This document shows positions 4,411 through 13,240 of a stretch of DNA of 25,622 nt, one piece after another. Position 1 is the stretch's first letter, and the number at the start of each line of letters is the position of its first letter. A program made the translations under genes and the position numbers. The stretch is from assembly GCA_021799945.1 (NCBI GenBank), contig JAJYZK010000003.1, forward strand, positions 1-25,622, in the 5' to 3' direction. Under the pieces are notes generated by a model. It was not told the origin of the DNA. It saw only the letters and a list, made by a program, of their open reading frames with translations, and did no database searches. This stretch comes from Acidobacteriota bacterium (GTDB lineage Bacteria > Acidobacteriota > Terriglobia > Terriglobales > Acidobacteriaceae).

Positions 4411-5655
4411 TCACTCATACTTCAAGCTCTCCACCGGATCCAGACGCGCCGCCCGCACCGCCGGAATGGCGCCGGAGGCCACTCCGACCCCGCAGGAAAC
4501 CAGAATGGCGACGGCCGCCGAGAGCCAGGAGACCTGCAATGGGTATCCGGTCAGCGATCCGATCAGCAGCGGAATGGCCATGCCCACGATTGTCCCCACT
4601 ATGCCCCCGCACAGCGAGATCAGCGCCGCCTCGGCCAGGAACTGGAGCTGGATTTCGCGATTGGTGGCGCCCAGAGCCTTGCGGATGCCGATCTCCCGGA
4701 TACGGGCCCGCACCGTGGCCAGCATGATATTCATGATGCCCACGCCGCTCACCAGCAGAGTCACCATCGATAACAGCAGCAGAACCCAGGTGAGCGCGGT
4801 TGCCGTCTGCCCGGCGATGGAGAGGACTTCGGTCAGGTTGCCGACATCGTATTCCGACTCGGCGCGGTGCCTGGCCTTCAGCCTTTGCAGAATCTCGGCG
4901 CTGGCCCAGGGAACGCTGCTGGAATCCTTCATCGAAAAATAAATCTGGTTCACCGCATCGGTGCCGGTAAAGTAGCGGGCCACCGTATACGGAATCAGAA
5001 TCGTATCGTCCTCAATCTCCGACTGTCCGTACGTCTCGCCCTTCTCCCGAAAGACTCCGATGATCGTGAAGGGCACGCCGGAAATGGCGAAGCTCTGGCC
5101 CACCGCGGCCTCCACGCTGCCGAACTGGTTCAGCGCGAAACTCACGGTCACCAAGGCCGCCTTGCTGTGCGCGTTCGAATCCTCCTGGTCGAAAAAGCGG
5201 CCGCTGAGCACCACCATGCGGCGGATGGAGGCATATTGCGGATCGACCCCGAGGATGAGGATGTCCCGCTCGCGGCCCCCGCCGCTCGAAAATCGCTGAT
5301 GCAGATTCAGCACCGGCGAGGCGGCCAGAATGCCGGGAACCTCCTGCTGGATGGCCCGCATATCGTCGATCGTCAGATAGTCGTGGACCGAGCTGATTCC
5401 GGCGTCGGCGAGCCCGGTATATTCGGCCCAGATGAGATTGGACCCGATGTTTTGGATCTCGCCCAGCACGTAGGACTTGCCGGACCGGCCGATGGTGACG
5501 ACCAGAATCAGGGAGGCGGTTCCGATCACCATGCCCAGGGCGGTCAGCGCGAAGCGCACCTGATTGACCCGGAAGGAATCGATGGCCAGGTGCAGGGTTT
5601 CCCGCAGCACCGCGCCTTCCTTCGCCTTCACCGCGTCCGGCCGGACAGGATTCAT
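4411..5655 (-). CDS. MacB-like (type VII ABC) permease, FtsX domain; no ATPase domain
   Basis: RFALTALGMVIGTASLI, large periplasmic domain, GVGIMNIMLATVRARIREIGIRKALGA, C-terminal AARLDPVESLKYE. Confidence 0.92.
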   Translation of the reverse strand: MNPVRPDAVKAKEGAVLRETLHLAIDSFRVNQVRFALTALGMVIGTASLILVVTIGRSGKSYVLGEIQNIGSNLIWAEYTGLADAGISSVHDYLTIDDMRAIQQEVPGILAASPVLNLHQRFSSGGGRERDILILGVDPQYASIRRMVVLSGRFFDQEDSNAHSKAALVTVSFALNQFGSVEAAVGQSFAISGVPFTIIGVFREKGETYGQSEIEDDTILIPYTVARYFTGTDAVNQIYFSMKDSSSVPWASAEILQRLKARHRAESEYDVGNLTEVLSIAGQTATALTWVLLLLSMVTLLVSGVGIMNIMLATVRARIREIGIRKALGATNREIQLQFLAEAALISLCGGIVGTIVGMAIPLLIGSLTGYPLQVSWLSAAVAILVSCGVGVASGAIPAVRAARLDPVESLKYE

Positions 5656-5737
5656 GGTTCAGCACCCATGCTTCACCCGCGTCGTGGTCCCGCCCAGGGC
5701 CCGGCAAGCCGGAATTCGACGCCGCTCCGGCAGCCCG

Positions 5738-6115
5738 CTAACGCTTGCCGAGAATCACCAGCGCCACGCCCACAACGACCAGCAGAATCCCGATCCAGCG
5801 CTGCAGGCTGACATGCTCGCCAAGAAAAATGACCCCGCCAGCGGCCCCCGCCAGATAGCTTAACGCGCTGACCGGAACCACAAAACTGACGTTTTCAAAC
5901 GACAGCACGCCCAGCAGGGAAAAAAACGCCAGCGTCATCAGCAGAATTCCGGCCCACATCCAGCCCACCCGCATGGCCCGGAAAATCACCCCGGCGACCG
6001 CCCCCGGACGGAAGTCATTCACTTCTCCCACCGACTTCATGGCCCGGGAGACGCACAGCTCGCCCGCAGTGCCGGCCAGCACAATCAGCAGGAAGAGAAC
6101 CAGCGCGCCCACCAT
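5738..6115 (-). CDS. Half-size EamA/SMR-like (DMT superfamily, ArnE/ArnF-like) membrane protein
   Basis: 4 TM segments; VSFVVPVSALSY and FLGEHVSLQRWIGILLV. Start ATG 6115 or TTG 6121. Confidence 0.8.
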   Translation of the reverse strand: MVGALVLFLLIVLAGTAGELCVSRAMKSVGEVNDFRPGAVAGVIFRAMRVGWMWAGILLMTLAFFSLLGVLSFENVSFVVPVSALSYLAGAAGGVIFLGEHVSLQRWIGILLVVVGVALVILGKR

Positions 6116-6295
6116 CAGCAATCCACCCTTACCGCCCCGGCCCGAGTGTCCGGCCGCCGAAGCTCGATACAGAATCCTTGCTATCCCGCGCGCAGCGACG
6201 GATTTGCGTTTTCAACGATTTCCGCATAGCAGTCCGGCTTCCATGTAGGCTGTCAGCCCTGGGGGACACCACGCTGGAAGCCTGTTGACAAACTC

Positions 6296-6709
6296 CTAGC
6301 GGTCCACCGTGCGCGGGCTGGTCCGTCCGACGGTGAAAACTCCCACGCAGATGATCGCGATTCCAATCCAGTGCAACAGGGTGACGCGCTCCCCCAGCAT
6401 GAAGTAGGCCAGCAGGGCGATCACGGCGTAGGCGACGGATCCGGCGGGCAGCACATAGCTATAGTCGGCCCAGGTCAGAACCATCATGTTGGCCACGAAG
6501 AAGGTCAGCAGAGACGCCACGCCCAACCAGACCGATGTGCTGCGGAAGACCCGGAGCGTGACGTGCAGCAGACCGGAGGGCGGCCAGAAGGCCACTTTGC
6601 CCACTTGTTTCATCCCCTTGGCCAGCAGAACGTTTCCCAGCGGACCCGCGATGACCATAATGAGAATCATCAGTATCGTTTTCAGATGTAACGGCCGGCG
6701 GGACTTCAT
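6296..6709 (-). CDS. Half-size EamA/SMR-like (DMT superfamily, ArnE/ArnF-like) membrane protein
   Basis: 4 TM segments; LTWADYSYVLPA and LGERVTLLHWIGIAII; GGAG upstream of ATG. Confidence 0.82.
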   Translation of the reverse strand: MKSRRPLHLKTILMILIMVIAGPLGNVLLAKGMKQVGKVAFWPPSGLLHVTLRVFRSTSVWLGVASLLTFFVANMMVLTWADYSYVLPAGSVAYAVIALLAYFMLGERVTLLHWIGIAIICVGVFTVGRTSPRTVDR

Positions 6710-10784: not shown

Positions 10785-11918
10785 ATGACGTCGATCACGG
10801 CAATCTCCCTCGGAGCCGCCGGGCTGGCTCTGGCCGCCGGGTTGCGCGCCGATCTGCGCCGCCGCGCGATCACCCCCGCCGCCCTGGTTCGACAGAGGCC
10901 GCTGGCCATCCTGCTGGCCATCCTGGACTTGGCTGCCGCGGCCCTGATGGCGGCGGCGGCAGCCGCTCTGTTCTGCGCAATGCTGGTGGCCGGCCGCGGC
11001 GTGCTCCGCCTGTCGTCGGCGCCCGGCCTGGTCGGACTCGGCTGCGTGACCGTCCTCACCATTCTCTGGAGCGAAGGCAAACGGCAGATCCAATACCAGA
11101 GGCCCCCGGGAACGATCTTCGCCGAATGGCTCACCTTGAGCGGCGCCGGCCTGCTCGCCGCGTCGCTGCTTGCCCGCCGAACTCCCGCGGCCATGCCCCA
11201 CGCCCAGGCCGTCGGCCTCGCCGGCGGACTGGCTCTGCTCGCCGGCGGCGCGCTGCTCGCCGTCATCGTCCCGCGATTTGCCAGAAAGTATGAGGGCCTT
11301 CGCATTTTGGACCGGGTCGGCGGCCCGGCGGAGGCCGAGCCGCAGTTCCACCAGCCCGAATACACGCCGCCCTCCCCCGAGTGCCCCAATCCCGGCCTCT
11401 GGCGCATGCTGGATTCGCAGACCACGGAGGTTGAGGTGCTCGATCTGCTCAAGTCTCTGGTGGTCGCCCTCAAGCCGAATCTCGTGGTCGAGACCGGCAC
11501 CTTTCTCGGCCACGGCGCCCTGAAACTGGCCGAGGGAGTGAAGGAAAATGGCTTCGGCCGGGTCATCACCGTGGAGTTCGACCCGCAAATCCACGCCCAT
11601 GCGAAGCGGCGGTTCGCAGCCTCTGGTCTGGAGCCCTGGATTGAAGCGCGCAACGAGTCGAGCCTGGAATCCACGATCGAGGGAACCATCGATTTTCTGT
11701 ACAGCGATAGCCACCTGGCCAACCGCGAGCAGGAGATCCGCCGCCTGCTTCCGCAACTCGATCCTCGCGGGCTGCTCGTGATCCATGACGCCAGCTCGCA
11801 CTTCCGGCTGGTGCGCGAGGCCGCGCTGCGCATGGAGCAGGAGGGCCTGATTTCCGTGGTCCTCTTGTCTACGCCGAGGGGCGTCGCGATCGCCCAGCGG
11901 CGCGCAGGACGACGGTAG
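10785..11918 (+). CDS. Membrane-anchored class I SAM-dependent methyltransferase (N-terminal multi-TM region plus O-methyltransferase-like domain)
   Basis: First ~165 aa have several hydrophobic helices; C-terminal [11 protein letters not shown] (motif I), [21 protein letters not shown]. Confidence 0.8.
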
Positions 11919-11972
11919 CCAGGCGCACAAAAAATGGGGCGCCGGACGAAACTTTCCGATTCATCTCGCGTC

Positions 11973-12001
11973 TTTACACACGGCCGGCGCTTCGTTACGG
12001 T
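11973..12001 (+). promoter_or_regulatory. Possible internal sigma70-type promoter for sqdB
   Basis: TTTACA-N17-TACGGT in a 119-bp gap; AGGAGGA RBS at 12028-12034. Confidence 0.4.
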
Positions 12002-12037
12002 ACATTAAAGACTTGCGGACAGAAATCAGGAGGAAGC

Positions 12038-13240
12038 ATGAGGATTGCCGTTCTCGGGGGCGATGGTTACTGCGGCTGGGCGACCGCGCTTTATTTGTCG
12101 AATCAAGGCCATTCTGTTGCGATTATCGATAACTTCATTCGCCGCCTTTGGGATTACGAGTTGGGCGCCCAGACGTTGACTCCGATCCGCCCTATGCCCG
12201 AGCGGCTGCGGGTCTGGGAGGAGCTCACCGGAAGGTCCATCGAACTCTACACCGGCGACGTGACCGAGTACGATTTTCTCTCCTCCTGCCTACGGGAATT
12301 TTCCCCTGACGCCGTCATCCATTTCGCCGAACAGCGCTCCGCCCCCTACTCCATGATCGATCGCAAGCATGCGGTGGGCACGCAGGTGAACAACGTCGTC
12401 GGCACGCTCAACCTGCTTTTCACGCTACGCGAGTTTCTCCCCGACTGTCATCTGGTCAAGCTCGGCACTATGGGCGAATATGGAACGCCCAATATCGACA
12501 TCGAAGAAGGCTACATCACCATCCAGCACAACGGCCGGACGGATACGCTTCCCTTCCCGAAGCAACCCGGCTCCTTCTACCACCTCTCCAAGGTGCACGA
12601 CAGCCACAACATCACCTTCGCTTGCAAAATCTGGGGTCTTCGCGCCACCGATCTGAACCATGGCGTGGTCTACGGCACGACCACCGAAGAAACGGCGATG
12701 GATGAGGCGCTGATCAACCGGTTTGACTATGACGAGGTCTTCGGAACCGTGCTCAACCGGTTTTGCGCTCAGGCGGCGCTCGGCTATCCGCTCACCGTCT
12801 ACGGCAAGGGGGGGCAGACGCGCGGCTTCCTCGACATTCGGGATACGGTGCGCTGCGTGGAGCTTGCCTGCCTGAATCCCGCGGCCCGCGGAGAGTTTCG
12901 CGTCTTCAATCAATTCACCGAGCAGTTTTCCGTGCTGGATCTCGCCCACTTGGTGAAAACCGCCGGCGAGCAGATGGGGATGCCGGTCGCCATCGAAAAC
13001 CTTCCCGACCCCCGGGTCGAGGCGGAAGAGCACTATTTCAACGCGAAGCACTCGAAGCTGATCGATCTGGGATTGGCCCCTCACTTCCTTTCCGAGTCCC
13101 TGCTCGATTCCCTGATTGAGATTGCGGTCCGCTACCGGGATCGGATCGATCCCTCTCTTTTCCTGCCCCGCGTGAACTGGCGCAAAGCCAAGAACGAGCG
13201 CCGCATGGACGCCGGGGCCAAAGCCGTGCACACCGTATAA
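12038..13240 (+). CDS. sqdB: UDP-sulfoquinovose synthase (SqdB/SQD1/Agl3 family SDR), 400 aa
   Basis: [86 protein letters not shown]: SqdB/SQD1 signature stretches. Confidence 0.93.

Follow-up and report, generated by a model that had tools for sequence, protein, structure and literature searches.

Gene content and layout of the locus

The window (the whole stretch of 25,622 nucleotides of acidobacterial DNA that was analyzed) carries two divergent arms with seven genes, from a MacB-like permease gene to sqdB (Table 1), all of which were confirmed as real, with profile or structural matches, at the coordinates assigned to them in the initial annotation. The spacing described there is also correct, with a 79-nt overlap between asnB and the GT-C gene and a 25-nt gap between the GT-C and methyltransferase genes; sqdB starts 119 nt downstream of the latter and has a strong AGGAGG ribosome-binding site. 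The true start of asnB is the TTG codon at 7020, which is followed by the nucleophile Cys, and the open reading frame start at 6948 was rejected as its gene start. Promoter consensus is absent inside the intergenic region; the one promoter-like match in the divergent region (6634–6661) lies just outside, and the count of such matches is not above that in shuffled sequences. A mine-drainage run yielded an independent contig that covers the GT-C and methyltransferase genes and the start of sqdB; the host acidobacterium itself comes from mine-drainage and sediment samples.

Table 1. Features of the divergent locus, with positions in the window
Feature	Position	Strand	Profile or structural match
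MacB/FtsX-type (type VII ABC) permease without ATPase domain	4411..5655	-	PF12704 5.5e-37; PF02687 1.8e-21
EamA/DMT half-size membrane protein 'b', 127 aa, ~4 TM helices	5738..6121	-	PF00892 6.5e-07, 30.2 bits (cut-off 28.2)
EamA/DMT half-size membrane protein 'a', 137 aa, ~4 TM helices	6296..6709	-	PF00892 3.8e-07, 30.9 bits (cut-off 28.2)
Divergent intergenic region, 310 bp, between EamA-MacB arm and asnB arm	6710..7019	.	presumed shared control region
AsnB-family glutamine-dependent amidotransferase, 648 aa	7020..8966	+	PF00733 8.4e-93; GATase_7 9e-44
ArnT/PMT_2-type GT-C glycosyltransferase, 623 aa	8888..10759	+	PF13231 1.1e-19
Membrane-anchored class I SAM methyltransferase, 377 aa	10785..11918	+	PF13578 4.4e-11, residues 235-335
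UDP-sulfoquinovose synthase SqdB, 400 aa	12038..13240	+	624 bits, E 8e-187 to Arabidopsis SQD1 (1qrr)

As judged from its sequence, SqdB is demonstrably a genuine UDP-sulfoquinovose synthase, and its original identification stands: the SQD1 match extends over residues 2–384 at ~70% identity with an identical YHLSK catalytic stretch, and the score against the archaeal-type model NF041015 (483 bits) is under the cut-off of 575. AsnB exceeds the cut-off of the general asparagine synthase model TIGR01536 (454 bits, cut-off 267) and falls below that of the E. coli-type AsnB equivalog (263 bits, cut-off 499); its closest solved relative is the hydroxyamidotransferase 7ylz (2e-71), with E. coli AsnB 1ct9 behind (4e-41). 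GT-C aligns with ArnT 5ezm (E 3.7e-27), scores 90.6 bits against the ArnT model NF009784 (cut-off 567), and retains DDVD (ArnT D55/E56), E-K (E84/K85), D158, R270 and Y345, with N and Q in place of the ArnT Zn ligands H265 and H267. The ArnT catalytic and carrier-phosphate residues are thus kept. The enzyme is a putative periplasmic-face transferase.

The two EamA proteins, for which a hydropathy scan gave ~4 TM helices per half, are paralogs (30% identical) and putative subunits of a lipid-linked-sugar flippase; orthologs of 'b' show 61–75% identity, and 'a' matches the ArnE model NF011625 weakly (E 0.0014, 18.8 bits, cut-off 92). Hydropathy of the methyltransferase indicates ~4 TM helices followed by a methyltransferase domain, probably cytoplasmic, and the protein matches O-methyltransferase family 3 structures (3e-05). 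The MacB equivalog NF007826 matches the permease over the permease half only (203.7 bits, cut-off 966), and this protein is a candidate extractor/exporter of the flipped lipid.

Conservation and modularity across Terriglobia

Comparison of gene neighbourhoods in the loci of 80 other Terriglobia species (species-level genomes) bore out the functional linkage of these genes: the neighbourhood of the GT-C gene is kept, and the gene set recurs in over 30 distinct orders, a grouping far beyond chance. The sqdB gene adjoins the ArnT-like GT-C gene in 71/80 loci; thus the loss of synteny in relatives, named earlier as grounds against a role of sqdB in a common system, was not what we found. In 63/80 loci asnB adjoins the GT-C gene, and the EamA pair lies beside it in about 50 ('a' in 50/80, 'b' in 48/80). 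A GT21 glycosyltransferase gene, without a copy in the window, is the sixth conserved gene (at the locus in 63/80 species). The methyltransferase and the MacB-type permease, initially taken for regular members, are accessory instead: the former is within 7 kb of the GT-C gene in only 5/80 loci (adjoining it where coordinates are shown), and the latter occurs in 21/80, beside the EamA pair and on the same strand. Among conserved neighbours of the cluster there is no SQDG-type GT4 or GT8.

Separable modules are fused in this locus, and the single linear lipid-carrier pathway is not supported in the form proposed at first. The tightest pair is sqdB with GT21, adjacent in 61/80 loci, and where the GT-C gene stands alone, these two are direct neighbours or at most ~2.5 kb apart in another part of the genome (5/5 genomes checked). 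Pairs of asnB and GT-C genes are present in 99–100% complete genomes without sqdB, and the two adjoin each other in 14 of the 21 loci from genomes in which a search for sqdB gave no match; one genome (G087) has kept GT21, asnB and GT-C with sqdB absent. The EamA genes accompany GT21 genes, not asnB-GT-C.

The GT21 partner of SqdB and its probable link to hopanoids

The initial annotation noted the absence of a loading enzyme, which is true of the window but not of the genome: a GT21 ortholog is encoded on a different contig (G000:C122:1095-2309), and in most relatives this gene lies beside sqdB in convergent orientation. GT21 resembles HpnI and ceramide glucosyltransferase; among families it matches HpnI best (270–284 bits, below the cut-off of 310), and ceramide glucosyltransferase (6e-30) is the one relative found in the PDB, where no ArnC, GtrB or DPMS chain matched. 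These likenesses point to an enzyme that most likely glycosylates lipid hydroxyls as the user of UDP-sulfoquinovose. Invariant GT21 residues include D144/D146, D239/D240 and R279-W280. The clade of sqdB-linked GT21s is marked by E188Q, G369R and, where the xxRW motif begins, H276K, changes that would bring in positive charge and would suit an anionic donor.

A single clade (support 100) holds these sqdB-linked proteins; its sister clade scores over the HpnI cut-off and resides in MacB-TolC-HpnJ-EamA-GT21 operons with a true HpnJ (725 bits, cut-off 578). Moreover, hpnJ is immediately upstream of asnB-GT-C in one locus (L145) and lies upstream of EamA-asnB-GT-C-sqdB in two others (L067, L074). 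Together, these arrangements tie the module family to hopanoid head-group chemistry. Paralogous GT21 modules likewise have MacB-like genes at their flanks, in one case together with TolC and HpnJ. Thus, the hopanoid-like target offered initially as one option gains from the HpnI-like GT21 and the hpnJ linkage; GT21 being under the HpnI cut-off, its lipid acceptor is suggested by paralogy only. We know of no sulfur-bearing hopanoid, and none was found in the literature searched. The shc gene was found in the host genome and in 49/50 cluster-bearing genomes, a co-occurrence that discriminates little since shc is near-universal in these lineages.

Proposed pathway and comparison with known systems

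We tentatively favour, at somewhat less than even confidence, a reading in which the joint product of the modules is a decorated envelope lipid that carries sulfoquinovose, most likely a composite hopanoid. SqdB would supply UDP-sulfoquinovose, from which the HpnI-paralogous GT21 would transfer the sugar, on the cytoplasmic side of the inner membrane, to a hydroxyl in the side chain of a bacteriohopanepolyol; the two half-size EamA proteins would flip the resulting glycolipid. At the periplasmic face, the ArnT-like GT-C would most likely use a polyprenyl-phosphate donor to attach another sugar to the lipid or to an envelope acceptor nearby; the translationally coupled AsnB-type enzyme may amidate a carboxylate of the GT-C donor or acceptor. 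The membrane methyltransferase may O-methylate an intermediate on the cytoplasmic side, and the MacB-type permease may help to extract the product toward the outer membrane. Beyond the GT21 and hpnJ evidence, this reading draws on the sqdB-linked GT-C clade, which co-occurs with sqdB in 82/83 genomes (outgroup GT-Cs in 1/20), and on other Terriglobia in which sqdB is paired with a lipid glycosyltransferase of family GT4 or GT28; against it stand the HpnI score of GT21 under the cut-off, the genome that has GT21, asnB and GT-C but no sqdB, and a GT-C link to sulfoquinovose that could be indirect.

In Burkholderia and Rhodopseudomonas, HpnI, HpnK and HpnJ convert BHT-GlcNAc via BHT-glucosamine to BHT cyclitol ether. 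The likeness to this pathway lies in the partner of SqdB, an HpnI paralog of the same GT21 fold family, in the sister GT21 clade that is operonic with true HpnJ, and in the shc genes that mark these bacteria as hopanoid makers. Published work reports hpnK to be absent from SD1/SD3 Acidobacteria (PMC5462960). The donor, in contrast, would be UDP-sulfoquinovose rather than UDP-GlcNAc, and the EamA pair, ArnT-like GT-C, AsnB and MacB-type permease are outside the described Hpn pathway.

The Arn pathway (ArnA/B, ArnC, ArnD, ArnE/ArnF and ArnT) places L-Ara4N on lipid A in E. coli and Salmonella, with analogues in Francisella and Bordetella. It shares with our locus a divergent or co-directional arrangement in which a nucleotide-sugar enzyme is encoded with two half-transporters of ~4 TM helices each and with a GT-C that has the ArnT residue equivalents listed above. 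However, GT21 replaces the ArnC-type GT2 at the locus, GT-C lacks the Zn-ligand histidines, the ArnT and ArnE models are far under their cut-offs, and the sugar here is anionic, that of Arn cationic.

With the SqdB/SqdX (SQD1/SQD2) and SqdB/SqdD-SqdC routes to SQDG the locus has the first enzyme in common, whereas its partner is a GT21 in place of the GT4/GT8 SQDG synthase. As GT21 is an inverting family, a beta linkage would be expected, and DAG is probably not the lipid. In the Agl3/AglB N-glycans of Sulfolobus, as proposed here, UDP-sulfoquinovose feeds a non-SQDG conjugate and a GT-C-fold enzyme acts outside the membrane; AglB, however, is an oligosaccharyltransferase using dolichyl-PP-oligosaccharide, while our GT-C is ArnT/PMT-like and the acidobacterial locus has no oligosaccharide assembly genes.

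Alternative interpretations

A serious, if less likely, alternative is an Arn/Gtr-like carrier route, the core of the initial proposal, in which GT21 would load polyprenyl phosphate with sulfoquinovose, the EamA pair would flip the product and GT-C would move sulfoquinovose to a periplasmic acceptor (lipid A, LPS core, protein or hopanoid). The gene set fits the logic of a nucleotide-sugar synthase, GT-A loader, small-flippase pair and GT-C; sqdB, GT21 and GT-C genes show all three pairwise adjacencies, each found on its own; 79/80 loci are without an ArnC-like GT2; and GT-C retains the carrier-phosphate residues K85, R270 and Y345. Furthermore, the sqdB-linked GT-Cs form a clade (support 98) with sqdB in 82/83 members' genomes vs. 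1/20 for outgroup GT-Cs, and one of its three specific changes, H279Q, is at the ArnT H267 position beside R270. Nevertheless, the GT21 homologs HpnI and ceramide glucosyltransferase act on lipid hydroxyls, in line with the PDB comparison above, and both charged changes in GT-C (R120A and H279Q) lose positive charge, contrary to expectation for a sulfonate donor. The GT-C link to sulfoquinovose could be indirect, as only three columns distinguish the clade from outgroup GT-Cs, 136 invariant columns being common to both; GT-Cs at 53–68% identity occur in genomes without sqdB. The suggested genome search for GT2 polyprenyl-phosphate transferases found ArnC-like genes elsewhere in the host genome and none at the locus, so GT-C need not draw on sulfoquinovose; in one relative (G078) such a gene overlaps that of an outgroup GT-C.

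It is rather improbable that GT21 makes a non-hopanoid sulfolipid (e.g., beta-sulfoquinovosyl diacylglycerol or another acidobacterial lipid glycoside), phosphate-sparing or acid-stable and anionic, to which asnB-GT-C is loosely related. Bacterial GT21 enzymes can glycosylate diacylglycerol (Pgt of Agrobacterium and Mesorhizobium), and in other Terriglobia (G059, G166) the partners of sqdB are GT4 and GT28 lipid glycosyltransferases that resemble DAG glycosyltransferases, one such pair having a flippase-like and a MacB-like gene alongside. Unidentified glycolipids and high-mass lipids of cultured Edaphobacter strains (PMC11354219) would also agree with such a product. On the other hand, hpnJ is tightly linked to the sister GT21 clade, HpnI-family members in a published genome survey were confined to genomes that have both shc and hpnH (bioRxiv 10.1101/2025.07.29.667474), and the tight clade-level tie of GT-C would be left unexplained. 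Very improbable is the absence of any shared product, with asnB a housekeeping asparagine synthetase, GT-C decorating LPS independently and sqdB-GT21 hitch-hiking: AsnB does pass the general model, is the sole AsnB-family match (E ≤ 1e-30) in 11/46 genomes, and may thus have a housekeeping role, and asnB-GT-C is found without sqdB, but the set stays united through its many arrangements, the asnB ortholog is absent from four genomes carrying an asnB-less cluster variant, the asnB/GT-C gene overlap appears conserved among relatives, and sqdB follows the GT-C clade.

Overall, no paper describing such a system was found, in agreement with the initial view that the gene combination is undescribed. 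From the occurrence of sqdB beside hopanoid-decorating and outer-face sugar-transferring enzyme types, we predict that soil bacteria of the class Terriglobia make a sulfonated envelope lipid that has yet to be described.

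Results

The window corresponds to contig C133 of a metagenome-assembled genome (3.17 Mb, 86% complete) of the class Terriglobia (Acidobacteriota), and DNA nearly identical to it is contained in sediment and mine-drainage metagenomes. Its native composition (tetranucleotide r 0.991) speaks against mis-binning of the contig. All genes named in the initial annotation were recovered by Pfam and NCBIfam searches.

Features of the window (genes from the MacB-type permease to SqdB as assigned by Pfam/NCBIfam)
Feature	Position	Strand	Remarks
GH20 beta-hexosaminidase and MFS transporter	95-2737		Upstream of the cluster; GH20 gene truncated at contig start
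MacB-type permease	4411-5655	-	
Two half-size EamA proteins	5738-6121 and 6296-6709	-	
AsnB-type amidotransferase	7020 (start)		Actual start TTG; nucleophile Cys next
ArnT/PMT_2-type GT-C	8888-10759		79-nt overlap with asnB
Methyltransferase with fused membrane anchor	10785-11918		
SqdB	12038-13240		
Stretch of deviant composition	13500-16100		GC 0.586 (genome 0.637); tetranucleotide r 0.897
AraC-family regulator	13525-14478		
Two ORFs	14584-15549 and 15565-16047		No Pfam match
Four-gene operon	16316-20798	-	ABC ATPase, ABC-2 permease, GldG-like ABC_transp_aux/DUF7088 protein, DUF4340 protein
Two-domain rhodanese (thiosulfate sulfurtransferase-like)	24599-25468	-	11 kb from sqdB

The MacB-type permease combines a periplasmic core domain with an FtsX transmembrane domain (Pfam), and no ATPase is fused to it or present among the neighboring ORFs scanned. 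The EamA proteins, with ~4 transmembrane helices each, reach 18.8 bits against the ArnE model (cut-off 92) and gave no match to E. coli ArnE or ArnF as BLAST queries; their heterodimer prediction score (0.03) was counted neither for nor against pairing. The amidotransferase, with its N-terminal nucleophile Cys, passes TIGR01536 (454 bits vs. a cut-off of 267) and scores 263 bits vs. 499 for the true-AsnB equivalog NF006949, its best solved relative being the hydroxyamidotransferase 7ylz. Outside the cluster, the GH20 and MFS genes do not accompany it in relatives, and the four-gene operon resembles a GldA/F/G-type transporter set.

The SqdB protein aligns over its full length with Arabidopsis SQD1 (1qrr) at ~70% identity (624 bits, residues 2-384 on 3-385), the identical segments including GGDGYCGW and a further one of 13 residues, and the SDR catalytic Tyr-x-x-x-Lys stretch is present. 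Since this match outweighs a shortfall against NCBIfam NF041015 (483 bits vs. a cut-off of 575), a model that we judge to fit the archaeal Agl3 type, the protein is, on sequence grounds, a true UDP-sulfoquinovose synthase. Rhodaneses, one of which is encoded in the window, are able to release sulfite, the co-substrate of SqdB. Promoter and terminator counts were no higher than in shuffled sequences, no terminator was detected within the 119 nt that separate the methyltransferase gene from sqdB, and the scan gave no support to a separate sqdB promoter (the initial annotation had noted that sqdB may be transcribed independently). None of the RNA runs contains the locus, and the only matches in metatranscriptome contigs of the same mine-drainage study were fragments of <50 nt.

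Conservation of the cluster was assessed at the loci of the closest GT-C relatives (80 loci, one per species-level genome), with genes counted within 7 kb of GT-C. The gene association proposed in the initial annotation recurs in these relatives: GT-C co-occurs with sqdB in 71, with asnB in 63 and with the EamA pair in ~50 of the 80 loci, MacB being found in 21 and the methyltransferase in 5. De novo ORF clustering revealed a sixth conserved gene, GT21 (63/80 loci, mostly convergent with sqdB), which is not in the window and whose ortholog in the same genome is on contig C122. The neighbors conserved in at least five of these loci include no GT4 (SqdX) or GT8 (SqdD). The cluster in the window is an atypical one: its GT21 gene has moved away, the rare methyltransferase is present, and few genomes of its GTDB family have such a cluster (sqdB is present in 1/17, the GT21 ortholog in 0/17). 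The stretch of deviant composition sits where relatives have GT21 and, hence, may be an insertion that displaced this gene.

The cluster is also modular. Among 121 evenly sampled Terriglobia genomes, the GT-C orthogroup is the most widespread (33 genomes), compared with ~11 for type-A sqdB and 10 for the GT21 ortholog. In five genomes where GT-C stands alone, sqdB and GT21 are located elsewhere, side by side or at most ~2.5 kb apart, and five GT-C-bearing genomes of 99-100% completeness lack sqdB altogether. At 21 GT-C loci from genomes without a detected sqdB, asnB is adjacent in 14 and an EamA match is found in only one; EamA genes accompany GT21 genes, not asnB-GT-C. A strict sqdB dependence of the wider GT-C family is, therefore, ruled out by its members in genomes without sqdB. 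The sqdB-linked GT-Cs form one clade (support 98), for which this dependence is upheld: the clade includes all 72 sqdB-adjacent genes, and of the 11 remaining members, 10 come from genomes with sqdB at another location (G087 being the only exception), compared with 1/20 outgroup GT-Cs from a sqdB-bearing genome. Three alignment columns alone split this clade from the outgroup, one of them an H-to-Q change at ArnT H267.

HpnI, a bacteriohopanetetrol GlcNAc-transferase, gives GT21 its best match among protein families. Against its model TIGR03472 (cut-off 310 bits), the C122 GT21 (269.7 bits) and its orthologs (278-284) fall below the threshold, and a paralog on contig C312 of the same genome (361) lies above it. 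The sole solved relative of GT21 found in a PDB search is ceramide glucosyltransferase, and no ArnC, GtrB or DPMS chain was matched. The sqdB-linked GT21s form one clade (support 100), and the sister clade exceeds the HpnI cut-off; we regard the former as HpnI-like in putative action and not as an HpnI equivalog. The changes specific to the sqdB-linked clade (E188Q, H276K, G369R) shift the charge toward positive, which at the level of sequence is consistent with an anionic donor.

The sister clade sits in MacB-TolC-HpnJ-EamA-GT21 operons, with HpnJ at 725 bits vs. a cut-off of 578. Conservation of this HpnI-type operon in six comparison loci (L098, L100, L106, L114, L117, L120) suggests a dedicated flipping/export route for composite hopanoids in Terriglobia, an arrangement undescribed in the literature examined. 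Next to the GT-C family itself, hpnJ is immediately upstream of asnB-GT-C in one locus (L145) and of EamA-asnB-GT-C-sqdB in two others (L067 and L074), the only ones where it abuts the sqdB cluster. The squalene-hopene cyclase gene is present at another place in the window's genome and in 49 of the 50 cluster-bearing genomes, which encode 2-4 HpnI-like paralogs each. The top-scoring of these paralogs adjoin GT-C paralogs and MacB-like pairs; one such case is contig C312, where a GT-C paralog (44% identical) is convergent with the GT21 that passes the HpnI cut-off (positions 42-3092). The same pairing, together with two MacB-like permeases, occurs in at least eight other genomes.

Discussion

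Our preferred, still tentative, interpretation of this gene set, to which we give somewhat less than even chances, is a sulfoquinovosyl hopanoid. GT21 would make this lipid, the EamA pair would serve as its flippase, and GT-C would process the flipped product outside the membrane, with AsnB and the methyltransferase as probable accessory modifiers and MacB as a putative part of export.

A different role for GT-C is implied by an Arn-like route, in which the sugar travels on a lipid carrier, as the initial annotation had proposed; we consider it rather unlikely, albeit still plausible because the sqdB-linked GT-C clade tracks sqdB so tightly.

In an alignment to 5ezm, GT-C keeps the ArnT residues D55/E56, E84/K85, D158, R270 and Y345, and the ArnT-equivalent catalytic and carrier-phosphate positions are invariant in 103 family members. 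Several of the retained residues touch the lipid-carrier phosphate in ArnT (PMC7801869), so that GT-C should, judging by these positions, take a polyprenyl-phosphate-linked donor. The protein scores far under the ArnT equivalog NF009784 (90.6 bits vs. a cut-off of 567). The caveat raised in the initial annotation, that no ArnC-like GT2 is in the window, was borne out with E. coli ArnC as a query, which also gave a single distant match among the 80 loci; elsewhere in the genome, contigs C104 and C260 carry full-length homologs and contig C32 a partial one. These genes rule out GT21 as the only possible loader. The sole classical loader found beside the GT-C family is in genome G078 (locus L137, 7019-9633), where the 3' end of an outgroup GT-C gene (55% identical) overlaps with the gene of a full-length GT2 of ArnC type, which has 32% identity to E. 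coli ArnC. Given such loaders, the GT-C donor need not be sulfoquinovose.

The product could also be a sulfolipid other than a hopanoid, a reading that we hold to be improbable. Elsewhere in the class, sqdB is paired with a lipid glycosyltransferase (GT4 or GT28) or is part of a polysaccharide locus, and sulfoquinovose, thus, has several uses there. In one locus (L156, genome G059), sqdB is grouped with a MacB-like protein, an LPG_synthase_TM protein that resembles a flippase, a radical SAM protein and a GT4; in another (L157, G166), the gene after sqdB encodes a GT28 similar to diglucosyl-DAG synthase. A second sqdB type shares 58-61% identity with that of the window, is common in one Terriglobia family (13/16; loci L158-L161, genomes G139, G118, G086 and G168) and adjoins Wzz/GNVR, Bac_transf and epimerase genes in the annotated loci L158, L159 and L161, which suggests sulfoquinovose in exopolysaccharide or O-antigen. 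Co-location of the genes without any shared function is very unlikely, as the set is kept through >30 arrangements, which points to selection for keeping these genes together.

In its most elaborate form, the sulfoquinovosyl hopanoid interpretation describes a new composite hopanoid class in Terriglobia, with sulfoquinovose placed on a bacteriohopanepolyol by an HpnI paralog, flipping, periplasmic elaboration by a dedicated ArnT-like GT-C, AsnB-dependent amidation, O-methylation in some species, and MacB/TolC-type export to the outer membrane; as a complete scheme, this is doubtful. If true, this would be a first both for sulfonation of a hopanoid and for a GT-C with an assigned role in hopanoid chemistry; our search of the literature for links of sulfoquinovose to Acidobacteria, hopanoids, undecaprenyl or GT39/ArnT-like enzymes found nothing relevant. 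Terriglobia rank with the most abundant bacteria of soils, and little is known of their envelope chemistry. Cultured representatives contain unidentified glycolipids and "high-mass" lipids (PMC11354219), and SD1/SD3 Acidobacteria have hpnI and hpnJ and lack hpnK, the role of the hpnI homologs having been left open (PMC5462960). A sulfoquinovosyl hopanoid would account for these hpnI-like genes without hpnK, and the presence of the genes in at least one cultured strain makes the proposal testable. In the cultured carrier Tunturiibacter lichenicola MP8S11, sqdB-GT21 maps to ~194-196 kb and GT-C to ~1.40 Mb. A sulfur-bearing bacteriohopanepolyol would represent a new biomarker class with implications for how hopanoids are preserved and sulfurised in sediments, and a bacterial sink and source would be added to the environmental sulfoquinovose cycle. 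Because a sulfonate head group keeps its charge at very low pH, acidophiles, including the mine-drainage organism studied here, would gain a permanently anionic, phosphate-free surface lipid.
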